Under the pieces are notes generated by a model, which had not been told where the DNA came from, did not search any database, and was given only the letters and a program-made list of their open reading frames with translations. This document shows, in pieces, positions 7,753 to 13,884 of a stretch of DNA of 64,000 nt. The first letter of the stretch is position 1. The number at the start of each line of letters is the position of its first letter. The position numbers and the translations under genes were made by a program. This DNA is from an uncultured Chthonomonadaceae bacterium (GTDB lineage Bacteria; Armatimonadota; Chthonomonadetes; Chthonomonadales; CAJBBX01), in the NCBI GenBank assembly GCA_964519955.1, contig CAZFLM010000014.1:40673-104672 (forward strand), written 5' to 3'.

Positions 7753-8016
7753 CTAGGTCCAGTCCCGCGTGCTCGCACGTTCCCGCAGCTGGCGCGCGAA
7801 CCGCGGGCTGTCGGGCCGATCCGCGAACACCCCGAGTAGGCCCTCGCGCTCCCAGGTGGCGACGGCTTCGGCCGGACTGCCGGGCGGCAGCGGCGGCTCA
7901 GCCTCGCGCTCGTTGCTCAGCATCCTCAGGAACGCCGCATCGTCGAGGCCGCGCCGCGCGGCCTTGCTGCGCAACCGCGACTGCTCTTCGGCGGTCAGTT
8001 CAAGGACGAGCTTCAT
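7753..8016 (-). CDS. vapB: Type II antitoxin (RHH/VapB-like)
   Basis: I chose the start ATG at 8016 (MKLVLELTAEEQSRLRSKAARRGLDDAAFLRML), with GGGAG upstream. The track ORF starts 14 codons earlier. It is paired with the PIN gene. Confidence 0.55.
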   Translation of the reverse strand: MKLVLELTAEEQSRLRSKAARRGLDDAAFLRMLSNEREAEPPLPPGSPAEAVATWEREGLLGVFADRPDSPRFARQLRERASTRDWT

Positions 8017-8098
8017 ACCAGGCTCCCAGCCCCCGTTGCCCAGAGGGGACACCCACACTATACATCACCCGCCGCCGGATGGCAGCGCCAGCGACCCC

Positions 8099-9406
8099 CT
8101 ACCCCTTGATCCCCGTCAGCGTCACGCCCTGGATGAAGTAGCGCTGGGTCATGAAGAAGATGACGAGCACGGGGAGCATCATCATCGTGCTGGCGGCCAT
8201 CAGGAGGCCCGGCTCGCCGCCGTGCGCGGTCTGGAAGAGCTGCAGCGCGTAGGCCATGGGCATCCTATCCGGCGAGCTGAGGTAGATGAGGGGGCCCATG
8301 AAGTTGTTCCAGGAGCCCATGAACGTCATGATCGTGAGCGCTGCCAGCGCCGGCTTGATGAGCGGCAGCATGATGCGCCAGTAGATGCACATGTAGGAGC
8401 AGCCGTCGATCTTGGCCGCGTCCTCCAGGTCGTTGGGGATCGTCAGGAAGAACTGGCGCAGCAGGAACACGTTGAACGCGCTGCCGAAGAACGCGGGCAC
8501 CCACAGCGGCTTGAGCGTGTCGATCCAGCCGATGGCGCGGAAGATGAGGAAGACCGGCATCATCGTCACCGCGCCGGGCAGCATCATCGTGGCGAGGAGC
8601 ACCACGAACAGCGCGTCGCGCCCCGGCCAGCGGAGCCGCGCGAACCCGAAGGCCACCATCGAGCTGGAGAGGATCGTGCCGATGATGGTCAGGAGGCAGA
8701 TGATGAGCGTGTTGCTGACGTAGACCAGGCCGCTCTTCGTCTCGGGCGGCAGGAACGCCAGCGCGTCGGGGTAGTTCTTCCAGACCGGGCCGACGCGCTT
8801 GATCTTCTTCATCGCCGAGCGCGGCACCTCGAACTCGCGGCCGGCCAGGTCGCGCGGCTCGGTGACGCGCAGAATGTTGGTGCCGGTCTCCTTCTCCTGC
8901 ATCACCGCCACGGTGACCGGGCGCCCTTCGAAGGTGGCCGTCGCCAGCCCGACCTCCTTGCCGGCGATCATCACCTTCGCCTGCTGGCGCGGCACCCAGA
9001 CCGGCGGGAACTGGCTCATGTCCTCGTCTTCCTTCAGCGAGGTCACGACCAGCCAGGCGAACGGGACGAGGAAGATGGCGGAGCCGGTAAGCAGCGCGAG
9101 GTGCAGCGTGACCTGCCGGCCGGACTCGCGCGCGCCCTTGCGGGTCCGCCAGTCGGCGGTCGGCCGGATGCGCACGAGGTAGACGAGCCCCGCGACGACG
9201 AGGACGCCAACCGCCCAGGCAAGCGTCGCCGTCATCCGGCCGAGGTTGACCGCCGACGAGCCCACGCAGACACCGGCAACCAGCGCCAGGAGCAGCGCCA
9301 GGTCACCCCAGCGCCGCGCGCGCCAGCAGAGAGCCGCCACCACCGCGGCACAGCCAACCGCCGCGTAGAGCGCCAACACGGTCCCAAGGGCCAACCACAC
9401 GCTCAT
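8099..9406 (-). CDS. Carbohydrate ABC transporter permease (MalG/CUT1 type) with extra N-terminal TM helices and a large periplasmic loop
   Basis: 435 aa. Shows FLVPFAWLVVTSLKEDEDM... and the EAA-loop region DLEDAAKIDGCSYMCIYWRIMLPLIKPAL. Confidence 0.8.
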   Translation of the reverse strand: MSVWLALGTVLALYAAVGCAAVVAALCWRARRWGDLALLLALVAGVCVGSSAVNLGRMTATLAWAVGVLVVAGLVYLVRIRPTADWRTRKGARESGRQVTLHLALLTGSAIFLVPFAWLVVTSLKEDEDMSQFPPVWVPRQQAKVMIAGKEVGLATATFEGRPVTVAVMQEKETGTNILRVTEPRDLAGREFEVPRSAMKKIKRVGPVWKNYPDALAFLPPETKSGLVYVSNTLIICLLTIIGTILSSSMVAFGFARLRWPGRDALFVVLLATMMLPGAVTMMPVFLIFRAIGWIDTLKPLWVPAFFGSAFNVFLLRQFFLTIPNDLEDAAKIDGCSYMCIYWRIMLPLIKPALAALTIMTFMGSWNNFMGPLIYLSSPDRMPMAYALQLFQTAHGGEPGLLMAASTMMMLPVLVIFFMTQRYFIQGVTLTGIKG

Positions 9407-9443
9407 CCGCGCACCGCCTCAACCGCCCCAATGCAGGAAACAA

Positions 9444-10457
9444 TCACCGCGCGCCAACCTCGCTATCGGATTCCTCGTCCACGCCGTACTGCTGGGCCAC
9501 GAGCGCGCTCACGCGAGCCTGCGCCTCGTTGCGCCGCCCCTCCATCCGCACCACCGCCTCGACCCGGGCATGCCGCGACAACTGCTGCACGACCGCCACG
9601 TCGCCCTCCGTGGCCTCCAGCGCGGTCACGATCGCCGTGTTGCGCAGGCGGTGCGGGCTGAGCGTCTGCGGGAGGCCGGCCGCCGCCACGTAGTCGTTCA
9701 CGACCTTGTACAGCCCGTCGCCGGTGATGCCCTTGCCCTTGCCCGCCGGGTGGCACGCCTGGAACAGCACCGCGTCCTCGTCCTCGGCGTGCGGCGCGTC
9801 GCGCAGGTAGTCGGTGATGGCGGCGGCCGCGTGCGGCGTCAGCGACACCGCCTCCAGATTGCCGTCGCGCCCGCGGTTGCGCACCGCCAGCGTGCCGTCC
9901 GCCACGCAGAAGTCCCCCACCCGCAACGCACGGACCTCGGCGCTGCGCAGGGCGTTCTCCAGCAGCAGCAGCAGCAGCGCGTAGTCCCGCCTCCCCTTCA
10001 GCGTCGCGCGGTCCGGCTGGCGCAGCAGTTGCCGCACGTCGCCGGCCGGCAGGCGCTCGGGCGAGCGATAGGACACCGTCTTCACGCCCGGAACCGACCG
10101 CGTCACCCGCGCCTCGGTGATGCCCAGGCCGCGCGCGTGGTCGACCAGCGCCTTCACCGCGGCCAGGCGCCGGTTGATCGTGGCATCCGACATGCCGCGC
10201 GCCGCCAACTCGCTCTTGTACACCGCCAGCGAGAACTCGATGCGCTCCGGCGGGAGCTGAAGGTACTCGCGCGCCAGCTCCGGCGTGGGGTCGACACCGT
10301 AGCGCGACCGGAAGAAGTCGTTGAGGTCGCCCCGGTAGGCGCGGCGGGTATGTACGTTGGGCCGCGAGTCCAGCAGCGACTCGATCACGTCGCCGATGGC
10401 GCCCGCGGACGGGACCTCGGTCTCGGGGGCAGCCGATGACTTGCGAGGATCGCTCAT
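9444..10457 (-). CDS. Tyrosine-recombinase (phage integrase family)-like protein, apparently lacking the nucleophilic Tyr
   Basis: This is the C-terminal 337 codons of the 807-aa track ORF. The start ATG 10457 overlaps the upstream stop (ATGA). It has a SAM-like N-domain (TRRAYRGDLNDFF), box I (ENALRSAEVRALRVGDF) and box II (SPHRLRNTAIV...LSRHARVEAVVRMEG). Nine residues after the last His, where Tyr is expected, there is a Met. Confidence 0.7.
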   Translation of the reverse strand: MSDPRKSSAAPETEVPSAGAIGDVIESLLDSRPNVHTRRAYRGDLNDFFRSRYGVDPTPELAREYLQLPPERIEFSLAVYKSELAARGMSDATINRRLAAVKALVDHARGLGITEARVTRSVPGVKTVSYRSPERLPAGDVRQLLRQPDRATLKGRRDYALLLLLLENALRSAEVRALRVGDFCVADGTLAVRNRGRDGNLEAVSLTPHAAAAITDYLRDAPHAEDEDAVLFQACHPAGKGKGITGDGLYKVVNDYVAAAGLPQTLSPHRLRNTAIVTALEATEGDVAVVQQLSRHARVEAVVRMEGRRNEAQARVSALVAQQYGVDEESDSEVGAR

Positions 10458-12931
10458 TTCTTCTCCGCCTCGTAGTGGACCCATCGCGGGGCGAGCTTGA
10501 GTTGCACAAGCGTGAGCGCCAGGATGATGACGAACAGCACCCAGGCCAGCGCCGACGCGTAGCCCATCTTGAAGTACTTGAAGGCGTTGTTGAAGAGGTA
10601 CATCACCGGCACGAGCAGGCTGTCGACCGGACCGACGGACGACCCGCCGCCGCCCTGCCCGCTGAGCACGTAGACTCGGTCGAACTCCTGCAGCGCGCCG
10701 ATGGTGCCCATGATTAGGTTGAAGAAGATGTACGGCGAGAGCATCGGGATGGTCACGTGGCGGAACTTCACCCACCAGCCGGCTCCGTCGATGTCCGCCG
10801 CCTCGTAGAGGTGCTGCGGGATGCCCTGCAGGCCCGCCAGCCAGAGGATCATGCCGCCGCCCGCGCCCCACAGCCCCTGGATGATGAGGCCCGGCTTGGC
10901 CCACTCGGCCGCGCCGAACCAGCCCGGCGGGTCGACCCCGAACCAGGCGCTCAGCGTCATCTTCCAGGCCGCGTTCAGCAGGCCGCGGTTGGGGTCGCCA
11001 TTGAGCACCCAGGCCCACAGCACGGCGCTCGCGATAACGGGCACGATGGACGGGATGTAGAAGCAGGTGCGGTAGACGCTCATCCCGCCGACCTTGGCGT
11101 TCAGCAGCATCGCGATGGCCAGGCCGGTGACGATACCCAGCGGGATGCCGATGCCGGCCAGGTACGCGACGTTGCCGAGGCTCTTGGTCAGGTAGTAGCT
11201 GTCCGGCCCAAGCAGTTCCGTGTAGTTGTGGATGCCCACGTAGCGCGGCGCGTGCAGCACGTCGTAGTCGCAGAAGCTGAGGAAGATCGACGTGACGATG
11301 GGGCCCACGGTCAGTGCGACGAAGCCGAAGAGCCAGGGGCTGACGAACATGTAGCCCGCCCACGCCTCGGCCCGGGTCACGCGGCCCATGCGGCGGATGT
11401 GCAAGAACCGCCAGAACCCCAGACCCAGGATCGCCAGACCGCAGAGCACCGCGATGCCGATGGGGATGCGCTGATCCAGGAGCGGGAAGGTCTCGCGGGC
11501 GAACGCCTTCTCGAGTTCGCTCTGGACGACGCGCGTGCCCTCGGTCATGGCCACCTTCGCCGTCTTGCCGGTGTCCTTGTGGTGCGTGGCCTGGTCGAAC
11601 GCGCGCACGTGCTCGTCCCACAGGCGTTGGCCGACGAACGTGACGGGGCGGAACTTCGCGCTCTCCATCATGTCCATGAACTGCCGCAGCGGCTTGCGGT
11701 ACTTCTCTGCGCGCGGCGCGAACTCGGCGAAGACCACGTCGTTCACGCGGCGGTTGGCGGAGATGCTGGGCACGTACAGGCGGCCCTTGGACTCGTAGTA
11801 GGCCTTCTGGGCGCGGCTCTCGATGCGAGCGGCCTCGGGGCTGCCCATCCACTTGATGAACGCCCACGCCTCCTTCGGGTGCGTCGCGCCGCGCGGGATG
11901 GCGTACGAGAAGCCGCCCGCCCAGGTAATGAACGGCGCCTGGCCGTGGAACCGCCCGGGCTTGCCGCCGGTCGTCTGCTCCAGGCGCTCCGTGGGCACGG
12001 GCGCCGGCGCCACCGCGAAGTCCAGCTCCGGGCCGTAGCGTGCGATGCCCTCCAGGACCCAGTTGCCATCGACCTTCATGGCGACCTTGCCGGTCAGGAA
12101 GGGGTCCAGCTCGGCCGACTGGAAGCCGGAGGCGAAGGCGTCGACCTTGGTCACGCCGCCCAGCAGGTCGTAGACGCTGACCATGAAGTCCAGCGCGGCC
12201 ACGCTCTGCGGGTTATCCATCGTGCACTTGCGGCCGTCCGGCGACATGAACTCGCCGTCGTTCTGCCAGCTATAGATATAGAGCCACGAGTTCCCGAAGT
12301 TGGGGATGAAGCCGATGCGCTTGAAGTCGCCGCCCTCGTTCACGGTGAGCTTCTTCGTGACGTCCTTCAGCTCGTCCCAGGTCTGAGGCGGCTTGTCCGG
12401 ATCGAGGCCGACTTCGCGGAACAGCTTGCGGTTGTAGAACAGCATGCGGCAGTCGGTCGAGCTGGGGATGGCGTAGACGCGGCCCTTGTAGTTCGCTTCG
12501 GCCCAGCATGCCGTGTAGTAGTCCTCGGGGCGGATGGCGTCCGGCGAGCCCTTGTCGGCGGCGATCATCGGGTCCAGCGGCATGAAGGTGTCGCGCGAGG
12601 CCCAGTCGCCGATGGTGAAGCGGTCCTGCCAGATGACGTCCGGCGGCACCTTGCCCACGATGGCGGTCATGAGCTTCTGTGGGTTCATGCCGCCCGCGCC
12701 CATCGAGAGCACGTTCACCTTCACGTGCGGGTTGCGTTTCTCGAACTCCCGCACCTTCGCCTCGAGCCCCTTGCTCTCCTGGCCGTACTGGAGGCCCCAA
12801 ACGACAAGCCTGACGTCGCCCTCGGCGAGCCGGCTTTCGCCGCAGCCGAACACGAGGGGCAGGATAAGGACAAGCGCGAGTGCCATGAACAGGCGCCGCG
12901 CGAGCGGGAGGTGCGGTCGATAGGGAGTCAT
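10454..12931 (-). CDS. Fused extracellular solute-binding lipoprotein + MalF-type ABC permease (CUT1 sugar family)
   Basis: 825 aa in one frame. It has a lipoprotein signal (LPLVFGCGES), about 460 aa of SBP-like sequence, and then TM helices with the permease core (EAADIDGAGWWVKFRHVTIPMLSP). Confidence 0.8.
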   Translation of the reverse strand: MTPYRPHLPLARRLFMALALVLILPLVFGCGESRLAEGDVRLVVWGLQYGQESKGLEAKVREFEKRNPHVKVNVLSMGAGGMNPQKLMTAIVGKVPPDVIWQDRFTIGDWASRDTFMPLDPMIAADKGSPDAIRPEDYYTACWAEANYKGRVYAIPSSTDCRMLFYNRKLFREVGLDPDKPPQTWDELKDVTKKLTVNEGGDFKRIGFIPNFGNSWLYIYSWQNDGEFMSPDGRKCTMDNPQSVAALDFMVSVYDLLGGVTKVDAFASGFQSAELDPFLTGKVAMKVDGNWVLEGIARYGPELDFAVAPAPVPTERLEQTTGGKPGRFHGQAPFITWAGGFSYAIPRGATHPKEAWAFIKWMGSPEAARIESRAQKAYYESKGRLYVPSISANRRVNDVVFAEFAPRAEKYRKPLRQFMDMMESAKFRPVTFVGQRLWDEHVRAFDQATHHKDTGKTAKVAMTEGTRVVQSELEKAFARETFPLLDQRIPIGIAVLCGLAILGLGFWRFLHIRRMGRVTRAEAWAGYMFVSPWLFGFVALTVGPIVTSIFLSFCDYDVLHAPRYVGIHNYTELLGPDSYYLTKSLGNVAYLAGIGIPLGIVTGLAIAMLLNAKVGGMSVYRTCFYIPSIVPVIASAVLWAWVLNGDPNRGLLNAAWKMTLSAWFGVDPPGWFGAAEWAKPGLIIQGLWGAGGGMILWLAGLQGIPQHLYEAADIDGAGWWVKFRHVTIPMLSPYIFFNLIMGTIGALQEFDRVYVLSGQGGGGSSVGPVDSLLVPVMYLFNNAFKYFKMGYASALAWVLFVIILALTLVQLKLAPRWVHYEAEKK

Positions 12932-13113
12932 GGGTGATTCGAGTTCCGTCGCCGAGTCTGGGTCTCGGTCTTGGGGATGGCCCGGCCGTGTGTTATTCTA
13001 GCGAACTTGCGAGGTCCTGTCAATGCGCGGCGCTCACGCAGGCGTCGTTCCAGCTCGATACGGGTTCAGGACAGCCCTCAGAGCAGGGCATCCCTGGCGA
13101 GCATCGCGTCACT

Positions 13114-13129
13114 TGGCACGCAATGTGCA
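13114..13129 (+). promoter_or_regulatory. Sigma-54 (-24/-12) promoter for the PEP-CTERM protein gene
   Basis: TGGCACGCAATGTGCA matches TGGCACG-N4-TTGCA with one mismatch and correct spacing. It lies about 90 nt upstream of the ATG at 13219. Confidence 0.55.
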
Positions 13130-13218
13130 ATAGTGTCCCTGAGACCCGGCGATGCCGCCCGGTCTGCCGTACAAGACGCCCATCGACGCCATATCGCTTC
13201 CCGCCAACGGAGAACCGT

Positions 13219-13884
13219 ATGAAGTACGCGCGAATCGCTGCTGCAGCCTCGGCGCTCTGCTGCCTGCTGGCCCTCGGGGCGCCCCGGGCCAACGCCGCCG
13301 ACGCCATTCCGTACCCGTATGCCGGCAACTACAACGACGCCGTCTACACCTTCACGGCCACGAGTTCCGGCGATATCGTCGCCTACCTCGTCGGCGGGCA
13401 CGATGCCGGGTACTCGAATGAGCTCGGCCTGCTGATCAACGGGGTGCTCTCGCCGGCCGGATATGGCCTCGAGAACCACTCCGACTACGGCACGTCGTTC
13501 AACCTCGGTTACGCCAACGCCGGCGATGTCCTCGTGTTCGTGCTCCACAATCTGGACCCGCTCGGCATGAACGCCTACTCGGACCCGAGCATGAACGTGG
13601 GGTACGACCTCCCGGGCATCGACACCCACAACCACGTCTACTCGACCGAGTACACCGCCACCGATCCGGTGTTCGTCTACGGCAGCGTCGTGGTTCCGGC
13701 CGGAACGTATGTCGGGTTCGAGGACCTGCAGTTCCCGGACTCGAACTACAACTACGACGACGAGAGCTTCGTCTTCACCAACGTCCGGGTTGGCACCGGC
13801 GTCCCCGAGCCCGGCGTGCTGGCGCTGTTCGTCGCGGCGGGCGTTCCGCTGTCGGCATTCGCCATCCGCCGCCGCGCCCGGTAG
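13219..13884 (+). CDS. Secreted PEP-CTERM sorting-domain protein
   Basis: I chose the start ATG at 13219 (MKYARIAAAASALCCLLALGAPRANA signal peptide, GGAGAA RBS). The C-terminus VPEPGVLALFVAAGVPLSAFAIRRRAR has the PEP-CTERM layout: motif, TM helix, basic tail. Confidence 0.8.
   Translation: MKYARIAAAASALCCLLALGAPRANAADAIPYPYAGNYNDAVYTFTATSSGDIVAYLVGGHDAGYSNELGLLINGVLSPAGYGLENHSDYGTSFNLGYANAGDVLVFVLHNLDPLGMNAYSDPSMNVGYDLPGIDTHNHVYSTEYTATDPVFVYGSVVVPAGTYVGFEDLQFPDSNYNYDDESFVFTNVRVGTGVPEPGVLALFVAAGVPLSAFAIRRRAR

Follow-up and report, generated by a model that had tools for sequence, protein, structure and literature searches.

A tyrosine recombinase gene lacking its catalytic tyrosine is retained under purifying selection inside a sugar ABC transporter operon of Chthonomonadales

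Several described systems pair a simple, two-domain tyrosine recombinase with a DNA site linked to its gene. Such an arrangement is found for XerS/difSL of streptococci and XerH/difH of Helicobacter, and Cre/loxP and the plasmid multimer-resolution modules likewise consist of a single recombinase and an adjoining site. Here we analyze a gene of this superfamily in a 64,000-nucleotide stretch of DNA (hereafter the window) from an uncultured Chthonomonadaceae bacterium of the phylum Armatimonadota (assembly GCA_964519955.1, contig CAZFLM010000014.1, positions 40,673 to 104,672). The gene lies in an operon for a sugar ATP-binding cassette (ABC) transporter, and its product lacks both the nucleophilic Tyr and the catalytic Lys. 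We somewhat favor the explanation that it is a vertically inherited, catalytically dead orthologue of a site-specific recombination module that has been kept for a non-catalytic role, likely DNA binding or bending.

The main documented cases in which a tyrosine recombinase became a non-catalytic protein are so far TnsF, which is transposon-borne, and the Crypton derivatives of eukaryotes. TnsF of Tn6022-like Tn7 transposons is a catalysis-dead derivative that is kept for DNA recognition and targeting, and its active ancestor is extant (Faure et al., 2023, PMC10293859). TnsF carries N-terminal zinc fingers and tandem core-binding (CB) domains, has no catalytic pocket, and works with Tn7 genes. 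In contrast, the window protein keeps the full fold with no added N-terminal domain, and no transposon genes lie nearby; its neighbors are the ABC transporter genes, a PIN/antitoxin pair, and a PEP-CTERM protein gene. The Crypton-derived animal genes are host genes that come from mobile-element tyrosine recombinases and differ from the window protein in being eukaryotic and in carrying other domain fusions (Kojima and Jurka, 2011, PMC3212892).

A preliminary description of the locus, made from the sequence alone, had recognized a 337-amino-acid protein of the phage integrase family with the motifs ALRSAEV, HRLR, and LSRHA. Indeed, the protein matches Pfam Phage_integrase (PF00589) at 60.9 bits (cut-off 27.1; E = 1.7e-16) in an alignment that covers positions 2-162 of the 172-position profile, and all of these motifs are present, with R171 in ALRSAEV, H269 and R272 in HRLR, and H296 in LSRHA. 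The match of the N-terminal region to the SAM-like domain (Phage_int_SAM_1) is weak (4e-4). Integrase families of the PHROG collection are matched as well, and the best NCBIfam matches are the XerC, XerD, and XerA models, all far under their cut-offs. Specifically, the XerC and XerD equivalogs (TIGR02224 and TIGR02225) yield 93.8 and 83.6 bits where 335 and 330 are required, and catalytically intact relatives likewise remain below these cut-offs at 110-121 bits. In this regard the family (94-121 bits versus cut-offs of 330-335) is unlike the Xer systems.

The AlphaFold2 model of the protein (mean predicted local distance difference test score, pLDDT, of 78.8) comprises a helical N-domain and an alpha/beta C-domain, with no extra N-terminal domain and with the C-terminal helix region (residues 309-324) retained. 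Low-confidence regions are limited to the tails, the linker between the domains, and residues 297-306. The best full-length Foldseek matches of this model are XerA, Cre, and XerD, down to E = 1e-8. The protein is a member of the tyrosine recombinase superfamily by its fold and its two-domain architecture. As a separate observation, chain 14 of PDB entry 9i5v (401 amino acids, deposited as 'ribosome-associated translation inhibitor RaiA') aligns over recombinase residues 50-277 (E = 7e-7), which reflects either a Xer-like domain in a ribosome structure or an oddity of naming.

The state of the active site was read from an hmmalign alignment of 274 family sequences, which include about 70 close members from a search of 5.8 billion proteins and 160 loci from genome and metagenome scans. 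At positions 171, 195, 269, 272, 273, 296, and 305 (window protein numbering), 248 of the 274 sequences carry the signature R-K-H-R-H-H-Y. The window protein instead reads R171-R195-H269-R272-N273-H296-M305, and its only close relative, a sister lineage (P0002/L001) that is 68-73% identical, reads R-R-Q-R-D-H-M. The gene and the two decisive codons are located as follows.

9444..10457, minus strand: tyrosine-recombinase-fold gene, 337 amino acids, catalytic Tyr and Lys lost (Pfam, family alignment, structure model, and selection estimates)
9543..9545, minus strand: Met305 at the position of the nucleophilic Tyr, codon ATG, same codon in sister locus L001 (family alignment)
9873..9875, minus strand: Arg195 at the position of the catalytic Lys, codon CGC, in the beta2-beta3 hairpin (GKGRGTQ in the family, NRGRDGN here; family alignment)

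The preliminary description had already proposed Met at the nucleophile position and had named a profile alignment as the means to check it. The family alignment does place Met305 in the nucleophile column, which is Tyr in 256 of 274 sequences and lies in a gap-free region; the PDB and NCBIfam alignments end at residues 299-304, short of this position. The exchange of Lys195 for Arg and of the family His at position 273 for Asn had both been overlooked, and the nearest Tyr, which had been put 29 residues away, is Y323, 27 residues past H296 and 18 past M305. The sister lineage additionally lacks the His of the HxxR motif (H269Q). Because a change from TAY to ATG requires substitution of all three codon positions and ATG is found in both lineages, the loss of Tyr is old and shared. 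A frameshift that conceals the Tyr was considered and rejected, given that the C-terminal 40 residues align to the family without gaps and that M305 is a clean ATG in both lineages.

The changes are not confined to these residues. Across 226 intact members, 83 columns reach a conservation of 90% or more; of these, the window protein keeps 61 and the sister 63, such that about 20 columns are changed (22 in the window protein), most of them in both, compared with a median of 1 in intact members. The changed columns cluster at R172, the I-x-G-K-G-x-G hairpin, H273/T277, and the T-x3-Y-D-D-N motif. As judged from these patterns, the active site has been dismantled while the other conserved positions of the fold were largely kept. 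Apart from the P0002/P0108 lineage, no further Tyr-less relative closer than 50% was found in the metagenome and genome scans. One other degenerate relative (P0059) was observed on a short contig.

Might the protein still be an active recombinase that uses another nucleophile, such as Y323, or some unusual chemistry? Four residues of the active site (R171, H269, R272, and H296) do remain in the window copy, and Y323 is conserved in the sister. However, the catalytic Lys is replaced as well, the entire YDDN motif is rewritten, the sister lacks the HxxR His, and the column of Y323 is a variable hydrophobic position (L, F, or Y) in the family. The window protein thus does not carry the R-K-H-R-H/W-Y set, with its nucleophilic Tyr, that marks an active enzyme, and no cognate site is present in the window. 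Moreover, we know of no member of the tyrosine recombinase family that works without the Tyr. We therefore consider continued activity very unlikely; rather, the protein has presumably lost the ability to cut DNA.

The gene had been described as lying between two permease genes, with its ATG overlapping the upstream stop codon and with 37 nt before the next permease gene. The slot and these distances are as described, whereas the upstream gene is not a plain permease gene but a fusion of a solute-binding protein (SBP) and a permease.

12995..13023, minus strand: sigma-70-type promoter TTGACA-17-TAGAAT, 11 of 12 matches, 5' of the fusion gene
10454..12931, minus strand: SBP-permease fusion gene, 825 amino acids (sugar-type solute-binding protein and MalF/UgpA-like permease)
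9407..9443, minus strand: spacer of 37 nt between the recombinase stop and the second permease start
8099..9406, minus strand: second permease gene, 435 amino acids, MalG/UgpE-like, the second membrane component of the transporter

The recombinase ATG (10457-10455) overlaps the TGA of the fusion gene (10456-10454) to give ATGA, and its stop codon (9446-9444) is followed by the start of the next gene at 9406. The same overlap is present in the sister lineage, where the operon promoter is conserved too. Between this promoter and the end of the second permease gene we found no terminator-like site on the minus strand, and co-transcription of the recombinase gene with the transporter genes would be expected. 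The fusion gene itself is kept across Armatimonadota at 60-78% identity.

A recombinase gene had been considered unexpected inside a transporter operon. Yet intact orthologues occupy exactly this slot across Chthonomonadales: catalytically intact recombinases (INT), 40-56% identical to the window protein, are found in the order SBP-permease fusion, INT, HTH_17, second permease, TauE, FtsY (loci L002-6, L008, L010, L011, L013, L099, and L175), and start-stop overlaps are frequent in these loci as well. Thus, the placement is ancestral and vertically inherited. Between loci, INT identity rises and falls with the identity of the flanking genes, at a faster rate of evolution for the recombinase, which fits vertical inheritance of the whole locus. 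Likewise, in a neighbor-joining tree the window clade nests beside intact, operon-embedded members. Four loci (L007, L012, L086, and L090) keep the recombinase, helix-turn-helix (HTH), and TauE genes without the transporter genes.

Outside the order, the junction has other occupants. In Abditibacteriaceae (L178) the slot is empty and the two transporter genes are 7 nt apart, and in Capsulimonadales and Armatimonadaceae an unrelated DUF6886 gene sits in the same slot with overlapping start and stop codons (L177 8466-9008; L179 7420-8073). The SBP-permease/permease junction seems to take in guest genes repeatedly, and the distribution of the recombinase module places its arrival there in the common ancestor of the sampled Chthonomonadales or earlier. 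In one metagenome sample (3300010938), a contig (L174) carries recombinase, HTH, permease, TauE, and FtsY genes behind an unrelated 422-amino-acid gene, and another (L176) carries the SBP-permease fusion gene alone, 77% identical to that of the window. If both belong to one genome, then the operon has been split exactly at the junction of the fusion gene and the recombinase gene.

These data bear on whether an integrase-bearing mobile element inserted recently into the operon, an outcome that the preliminary description had tied to relatives with a clean junction and a target-site duplication. The clean junction does exist and relatives of the family reside on plasmids and on contigs resembling integrative and conjugative elements (ICEs), both of which would suit an insertion. 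However, the junction is clean only in another order and there is no duplication, which argues that the insertion was ancient rather than recent. Orthologues at 40-56% identity hold the same slot and have diverged together with their flanks, both lineages show the ATGA overlap with the upstream gene, and the composition is host-like (GC 73% in the gene and 69% in the window). As had been claimed earlier, no flanking inverted repeats or att-like duplications bracket the gene, where only low-identity chance matches occur in GC-rich DNA. There is also no cargo, and the position is fixed across the order. A recent insertion is accordingly extremely unlikely.

The intact relatives reveal what the ancestral module is likely to have contained. 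In every intact Chthonomonadales locus, CATTATCAA occurs in the short stretch between the recombinase gene and the HTH gene. The extended site is a 28-bp imperfect dyad with an 11-6-11 layout (for example GCTATTGTAAA-GATACA-TTATCAATACC in L002). Other groups have a site of the same type 10-100 nt 5' of their recombinase gene; these include many cyanobacterial loci, an anaerobic-digester group, and Ammoniphilus; examples are GCTTGCGGAAA-N6-TTATCGCAAGC and GGTTACGATAA-N6-TTTCCATAACC. Thus, the site is 3' of the recombinase gene in Chthonomonadales (usually by 5-130 nt, with one site per 15-20-kb locus) and 5' of it in cyanobacteria, digester lineages, and Ammoniphilus. On average, 6.7 of the 11 positions agree between the two arms, compared with 2.75 by chance, and the outer arm bases co-vary between loci, as is predicted for a core site bound by a homodimer. 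Representative sites have the following coordinates.

L002, 9062-9089: 28-bp site
L010, 10936-10963: 28-bp site
L017, 9817-9844: 28-bp site
L093, about 1753-1780: 28-bp site
L030, about 9877-9904: 28-bp site

The second component of the module is an HTH_17 protein of 142-186 amino acids with an excisionase-like N-terminus (TIGR01764, 'excisionase family') and a coiled coil. Across the wider family the pairing with HTH_17 is seen for 17 of 80 downstream neighbors, mostly outside cyanobacteria. Filamentous cyanobacteria are the source of many homologues of the window protein, at 36-41% identity, and the cyanobacterial copies are multiple and in some cases plasmid-borne. In Pseudanabaena loci (L026, L029, L035, L037, L039, L041, L043, and others) a shorter recombinase-like frame lies directly upstream, and matches there span about 1.5 kb because the two are tandem paralogues. 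A 32-kb contig of Ammoniphilus resinae (L017) carries three copies of the site, at 1373 (minus strand), 9817 (plus), and 18532 (plus), together with the recombinase and HTH_17 genes and genes for another integrase, a type IV coupling protein, and MazF, and thus resembles a plasmid or an ICE that has several sites for recombination. The coupling protein and MazF on this contig, the plasmid-borne cyanobacterial copies, and the dif/lox-like layout all indicate that the module probably derives from a plasmid or mobile element, or else from a Xer-like system. In one locus (L111) an open reading frame (ORF) of about 280 amino acids (7926-8759) lies between the recombinase stop and the site, which is thus 901 nt downstream; this ORF is putatively SMI1/KNR4 (SUKH)-like, and it may be a cassette-like insertion at the site.

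How does this module compare with the systems introduced above? Its site is a single 28-bp dyad beside the gene, with inner ends of the form ...AAA-N6-TTAT... like those of dif. In contrast to XerS and XerH, the family has an HTH_17 partner and is multi-copy and plasmid-borne in cyanobacteria, and the window copy lacks the site, the catalytic Tyr, and the catalytic Lys. A GC-skew comparison aimed at a replication-terminus location of the site, as for dif, showed no consistent switch, either in 12 relatives with flanks of only about 8 kb or along the window; a flip accompanies the site in the L011/L013 group but is missing at 8 other loci. As to Cre/loxP and the plasmid multimer-resolution modules, Cre is among the best Foldseek matches and one Firmicute relative resides on a plasmid- or ICE-like contig. 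The loxP site has a 13-8-13 layout rather than 11-6-11, and in Chthonomonadales the gene is part of a chromosomal operon, with the window copy predicted to be inactive. The intact relatives resemble the integrase/excisionase pairs of integrative elements in having an HTH_17 (TIGR01764) protein encoded after the recombinase. Unlike those elements, however, the module has one site between the genes, no attL/attR flanks, no cargo, and a location that is fixed across the order, and the window lacks the HTH gene.

A further group for comparison is the 'Cyan' subgroup of simple tyrosine recombinases, which is described as Xer-like and was proposed to replace Xer in Oscillatoriophycideae (Smyshlyaev et al., 2021, PMC8138268). 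The intact module may correspond to this subgroup, and the 28-bp site may be the core site of 'Cyan'-type recombinases, whereas the window protein lies on the Armatimonadota branch and is predicted to be catalytically dead. The recombinase and its adjacent site may represent the undefined Xer/dif equivalent of Chthonomonadales and many cyanobacteria. Prediction of dif in cyanobacteria failed in 2011 (PMC3025954), and the core site may bear on what serves as dif and Xer in these organisms (PMC3025954, PMC8138268). In the literature searched we found no description of a cyanobacterial or Armatimonadota module of recombinase plus site, nor of the operon-embedded module, its dead derivative, or the 28-bp site. 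The conserved core site with co-varying arms in Armatimonadota, cyanobacteria, and others makes the biochemistry of the family directly testable.

The window lineage has lost everything in the module except the recombinase gene. Where intact relatives carry the 28-bp site and the HTH_17 gene (about 0.5-0.8 kb), the window has 37 nt and the sister 67 nt, although the slot between the fusion gene and the second permease gene is orthologous to that of the Chthonomonadales module. In the 64-kb window, the best score with a position weight matrix for the site is 7.3 bits, compared with 36 bits at true sites of relatives, and neither an HTH_17 homologue nor a second recombinase was found there. The site and the HTH gene are gone from the sister lineage too. 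A weak match (GATAGCGGAAATGCCCACAATCAAGGAC, 10.6 bits) was observed in the sister at L001 3647-3674, 0.5 kb 3' of the second permease gene, and could be a relic or a chance occurrence.

Tyrosine recombinases act as tetramers with half-of-the-sites activity. A protein without a nucleophile might hence serve as a non-catalytic subunit for an active tyrosine recombinase that is encoded elsewhere, acting as a synapsis or regulatory partner like the inactive pair in a Xer/Cre tetramer. The retention of both domains, of most conserved non-catalytic positions, and of the C-terminal helix region in the model would agree with such a role. Since the window holds neither a second recombinase nor a cognate site, however, we regard this arrangement as unlikely.

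Is the remaining gene still maintained by selection? Because the inactivating substitutions and the deletion are common to the window and sister lineages, the divergence between the two postdates inactivation and records what happened thereafter. Over 337 codons the two genes show no indel and no stop. The ratio of nonsynonymous to synonymous substitution rates (dN/dS) is 0.26 by the NG86 method and 0.21 by the LWL85 method. The N-domain and the catalytic-fold domain have values of 0.20 and 0.21, respectively, whereas the N-terminal tail of 22 residues reaches 0.81. The neighboring permease gene yields 0.20 and an intact recombinase pair 0.11-0.14. When neutral evolution was simulated with matched composition to the observed nucleotide divergence of 28%, 0.8% of replicates (0.008) remained free of stops, and the expected amino acid identity is 48% compared with the 68% observed. 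The ORF is under purifying selection, and it shows neither the broken frame nor the dN/dS near 1 of a pseudogene. Only NG86 and LWL85 values are used here, as the maximum likelihood (ML) and YN00 estimates of Biopython were unstable or failed at this divergence (dS up to 31).

The most serious challenge to a retained function is that the gene is a non-functional relic whose frame persists for two reasons only: stop codons seldom arise in GC-rich DNA, and a nonsense or frameshift mutation would have a polar effect on the permease gene that follows. The third-codon-position GC content (GC3) of 94%, the dN/dS of 0.81 in the N-terminal tail, and the accelerated amino acid change in the window lineage are what such a relic might show. 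Erosion has also occurred elsewhere: in P0054, a truncated and decayed recombinase lies directly before TauE-FtsY, with the HxxR motif lost and no HTH gene. However, selection against polar mutations purges stops and frameshifts without lowering dN, yet both folded domains show values of 0.20-0.21, which points instead to a retained function that does not require DNA cleavage. The amino acid identity of 68% exceeds the neutral expectation, and the strong GC3 bias should depress dS and so inflate dN/dS rather than lower it. Furthermore, the inactivating changes are shared, such that the constraint postdates inactivation. A relic is therefore rather unlikely, although not negligibly so. The preliminary description had left the choice between a domesticated fold and a decayed remnant; the shared loss of Tyr and Lys, a dN/dS of about 0.2, and the absence of indels and stops favor the former and leave the remnant less favored.

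Taken together, these results are most compatible with a vertically inherited but catalytically dead orthologue that has kept a non-catalytic role. According to this hypothesis, an ancestral module composed of a Xer/Cre-like simple tyrosine recombinase, an adjacent 28-bp 11-6-11 core site, and an excisionase-like HTH_17/coiled-coil protein would have become lodged between the genes for the two membrane components of a sugar ABC transporter no later than in the common ancestor of the Chthonomonadales sampled here. Three changes would then have taken place on the stem of the window lineage: deletion of the core site together with the HTH gene, a rewriting of the active site (K195R and Y305M as well as the adjoining GKG and YDDN motifs, with H269Q also in the sister), and a tight coupling of the gene to the transporter genes. 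Afterwards, the N-terminal and catalytic-fold domains would both have been held by purifying selection, and the present protein would be co-expressed with the transporter through the promoter of the operon and translational coupling. Because both DNA-contacting domains are constrained and TnsF provides a precedent, sequence-specific DNA binding or bending, with a regulatory or architectural purpose, is the most likely role.

Several observations weigh against this hypothesis. The dead form is represented by two species-level lineages only, and selection is judged from one pairwise comparison with a dS of about 0.9, for which the Biopython ML estimate is unstable. The proteins of this lineage also change faster, being 41-42% identical to intact orthologues where these are 50% identical to each other at equal flank divergence. 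This raised rate fits partial relaxation of constraint, but it would also fit rapid change confined to the stem, after which constraint returned. The structure model has low confidence around residue 305, and the truncated copy in P0054 demonstrates that the module can simply erode. Finally, the ancestral DNA site is missing from the window, the extent of the search, and a functional link between the recombinase and sugar transport is not evident.

A more specific proposal is that a Xer/Cre-type recombinase on a bacterial chromosome gave up catalysis and became a sequence-specific DNA-binding protein, which is produced along with the sugar ABC transporter and perhaps controls it. We offer this only tentatively, as a possibility that is more doubtful than not. 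When the region upstream of the operon was inspected for an operator of the dead protein, only the promoter and a short leader block proved to be conserved with the sister lineage.

If a non-catalytic role is confirmed, then a single genomic slot would offer a before-and-after pair, with an active module in some lineages and a dead but conserved protein in others. A tyrosine recombinase would then have been exapted on the host side, with both the active ancestral state and the dead derivative open to observation in sister lineages. There is a practical consequence for annotation as well. Labels such as 'integrase/recombinase XerC' count these proteins as markers of mobile elements or of Xer, even though the one in the window is predicted not to recombine.

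The genes around the operon are of several kinds. Divergent from the operon promoter, positions 12934-13884 (plus strand) encode a secreted protein with a PEP-CTERM-like end (VPEPGVLALF...RRRAR). Past the second permease gene, at 7375-8058 (minus strand), a PIN-domain toxin gene (124 amino acids) and a small upstream partner occupy the place where relatives carry TauE-FtsY. The partner is 101 amino acids in length with a weak NikA-like match, and a promoter-like site lies at 8085-8057. Further along, positions 4451-7025 (minus strand) hold a phage-tail-sheath-like gene of 547 amino acids (Phage_sheath_1 and 1C) adjoining a 293-amino-acid gene without a Pfam match, and the two may be part of a contractile injection system or of a prophage remnant.

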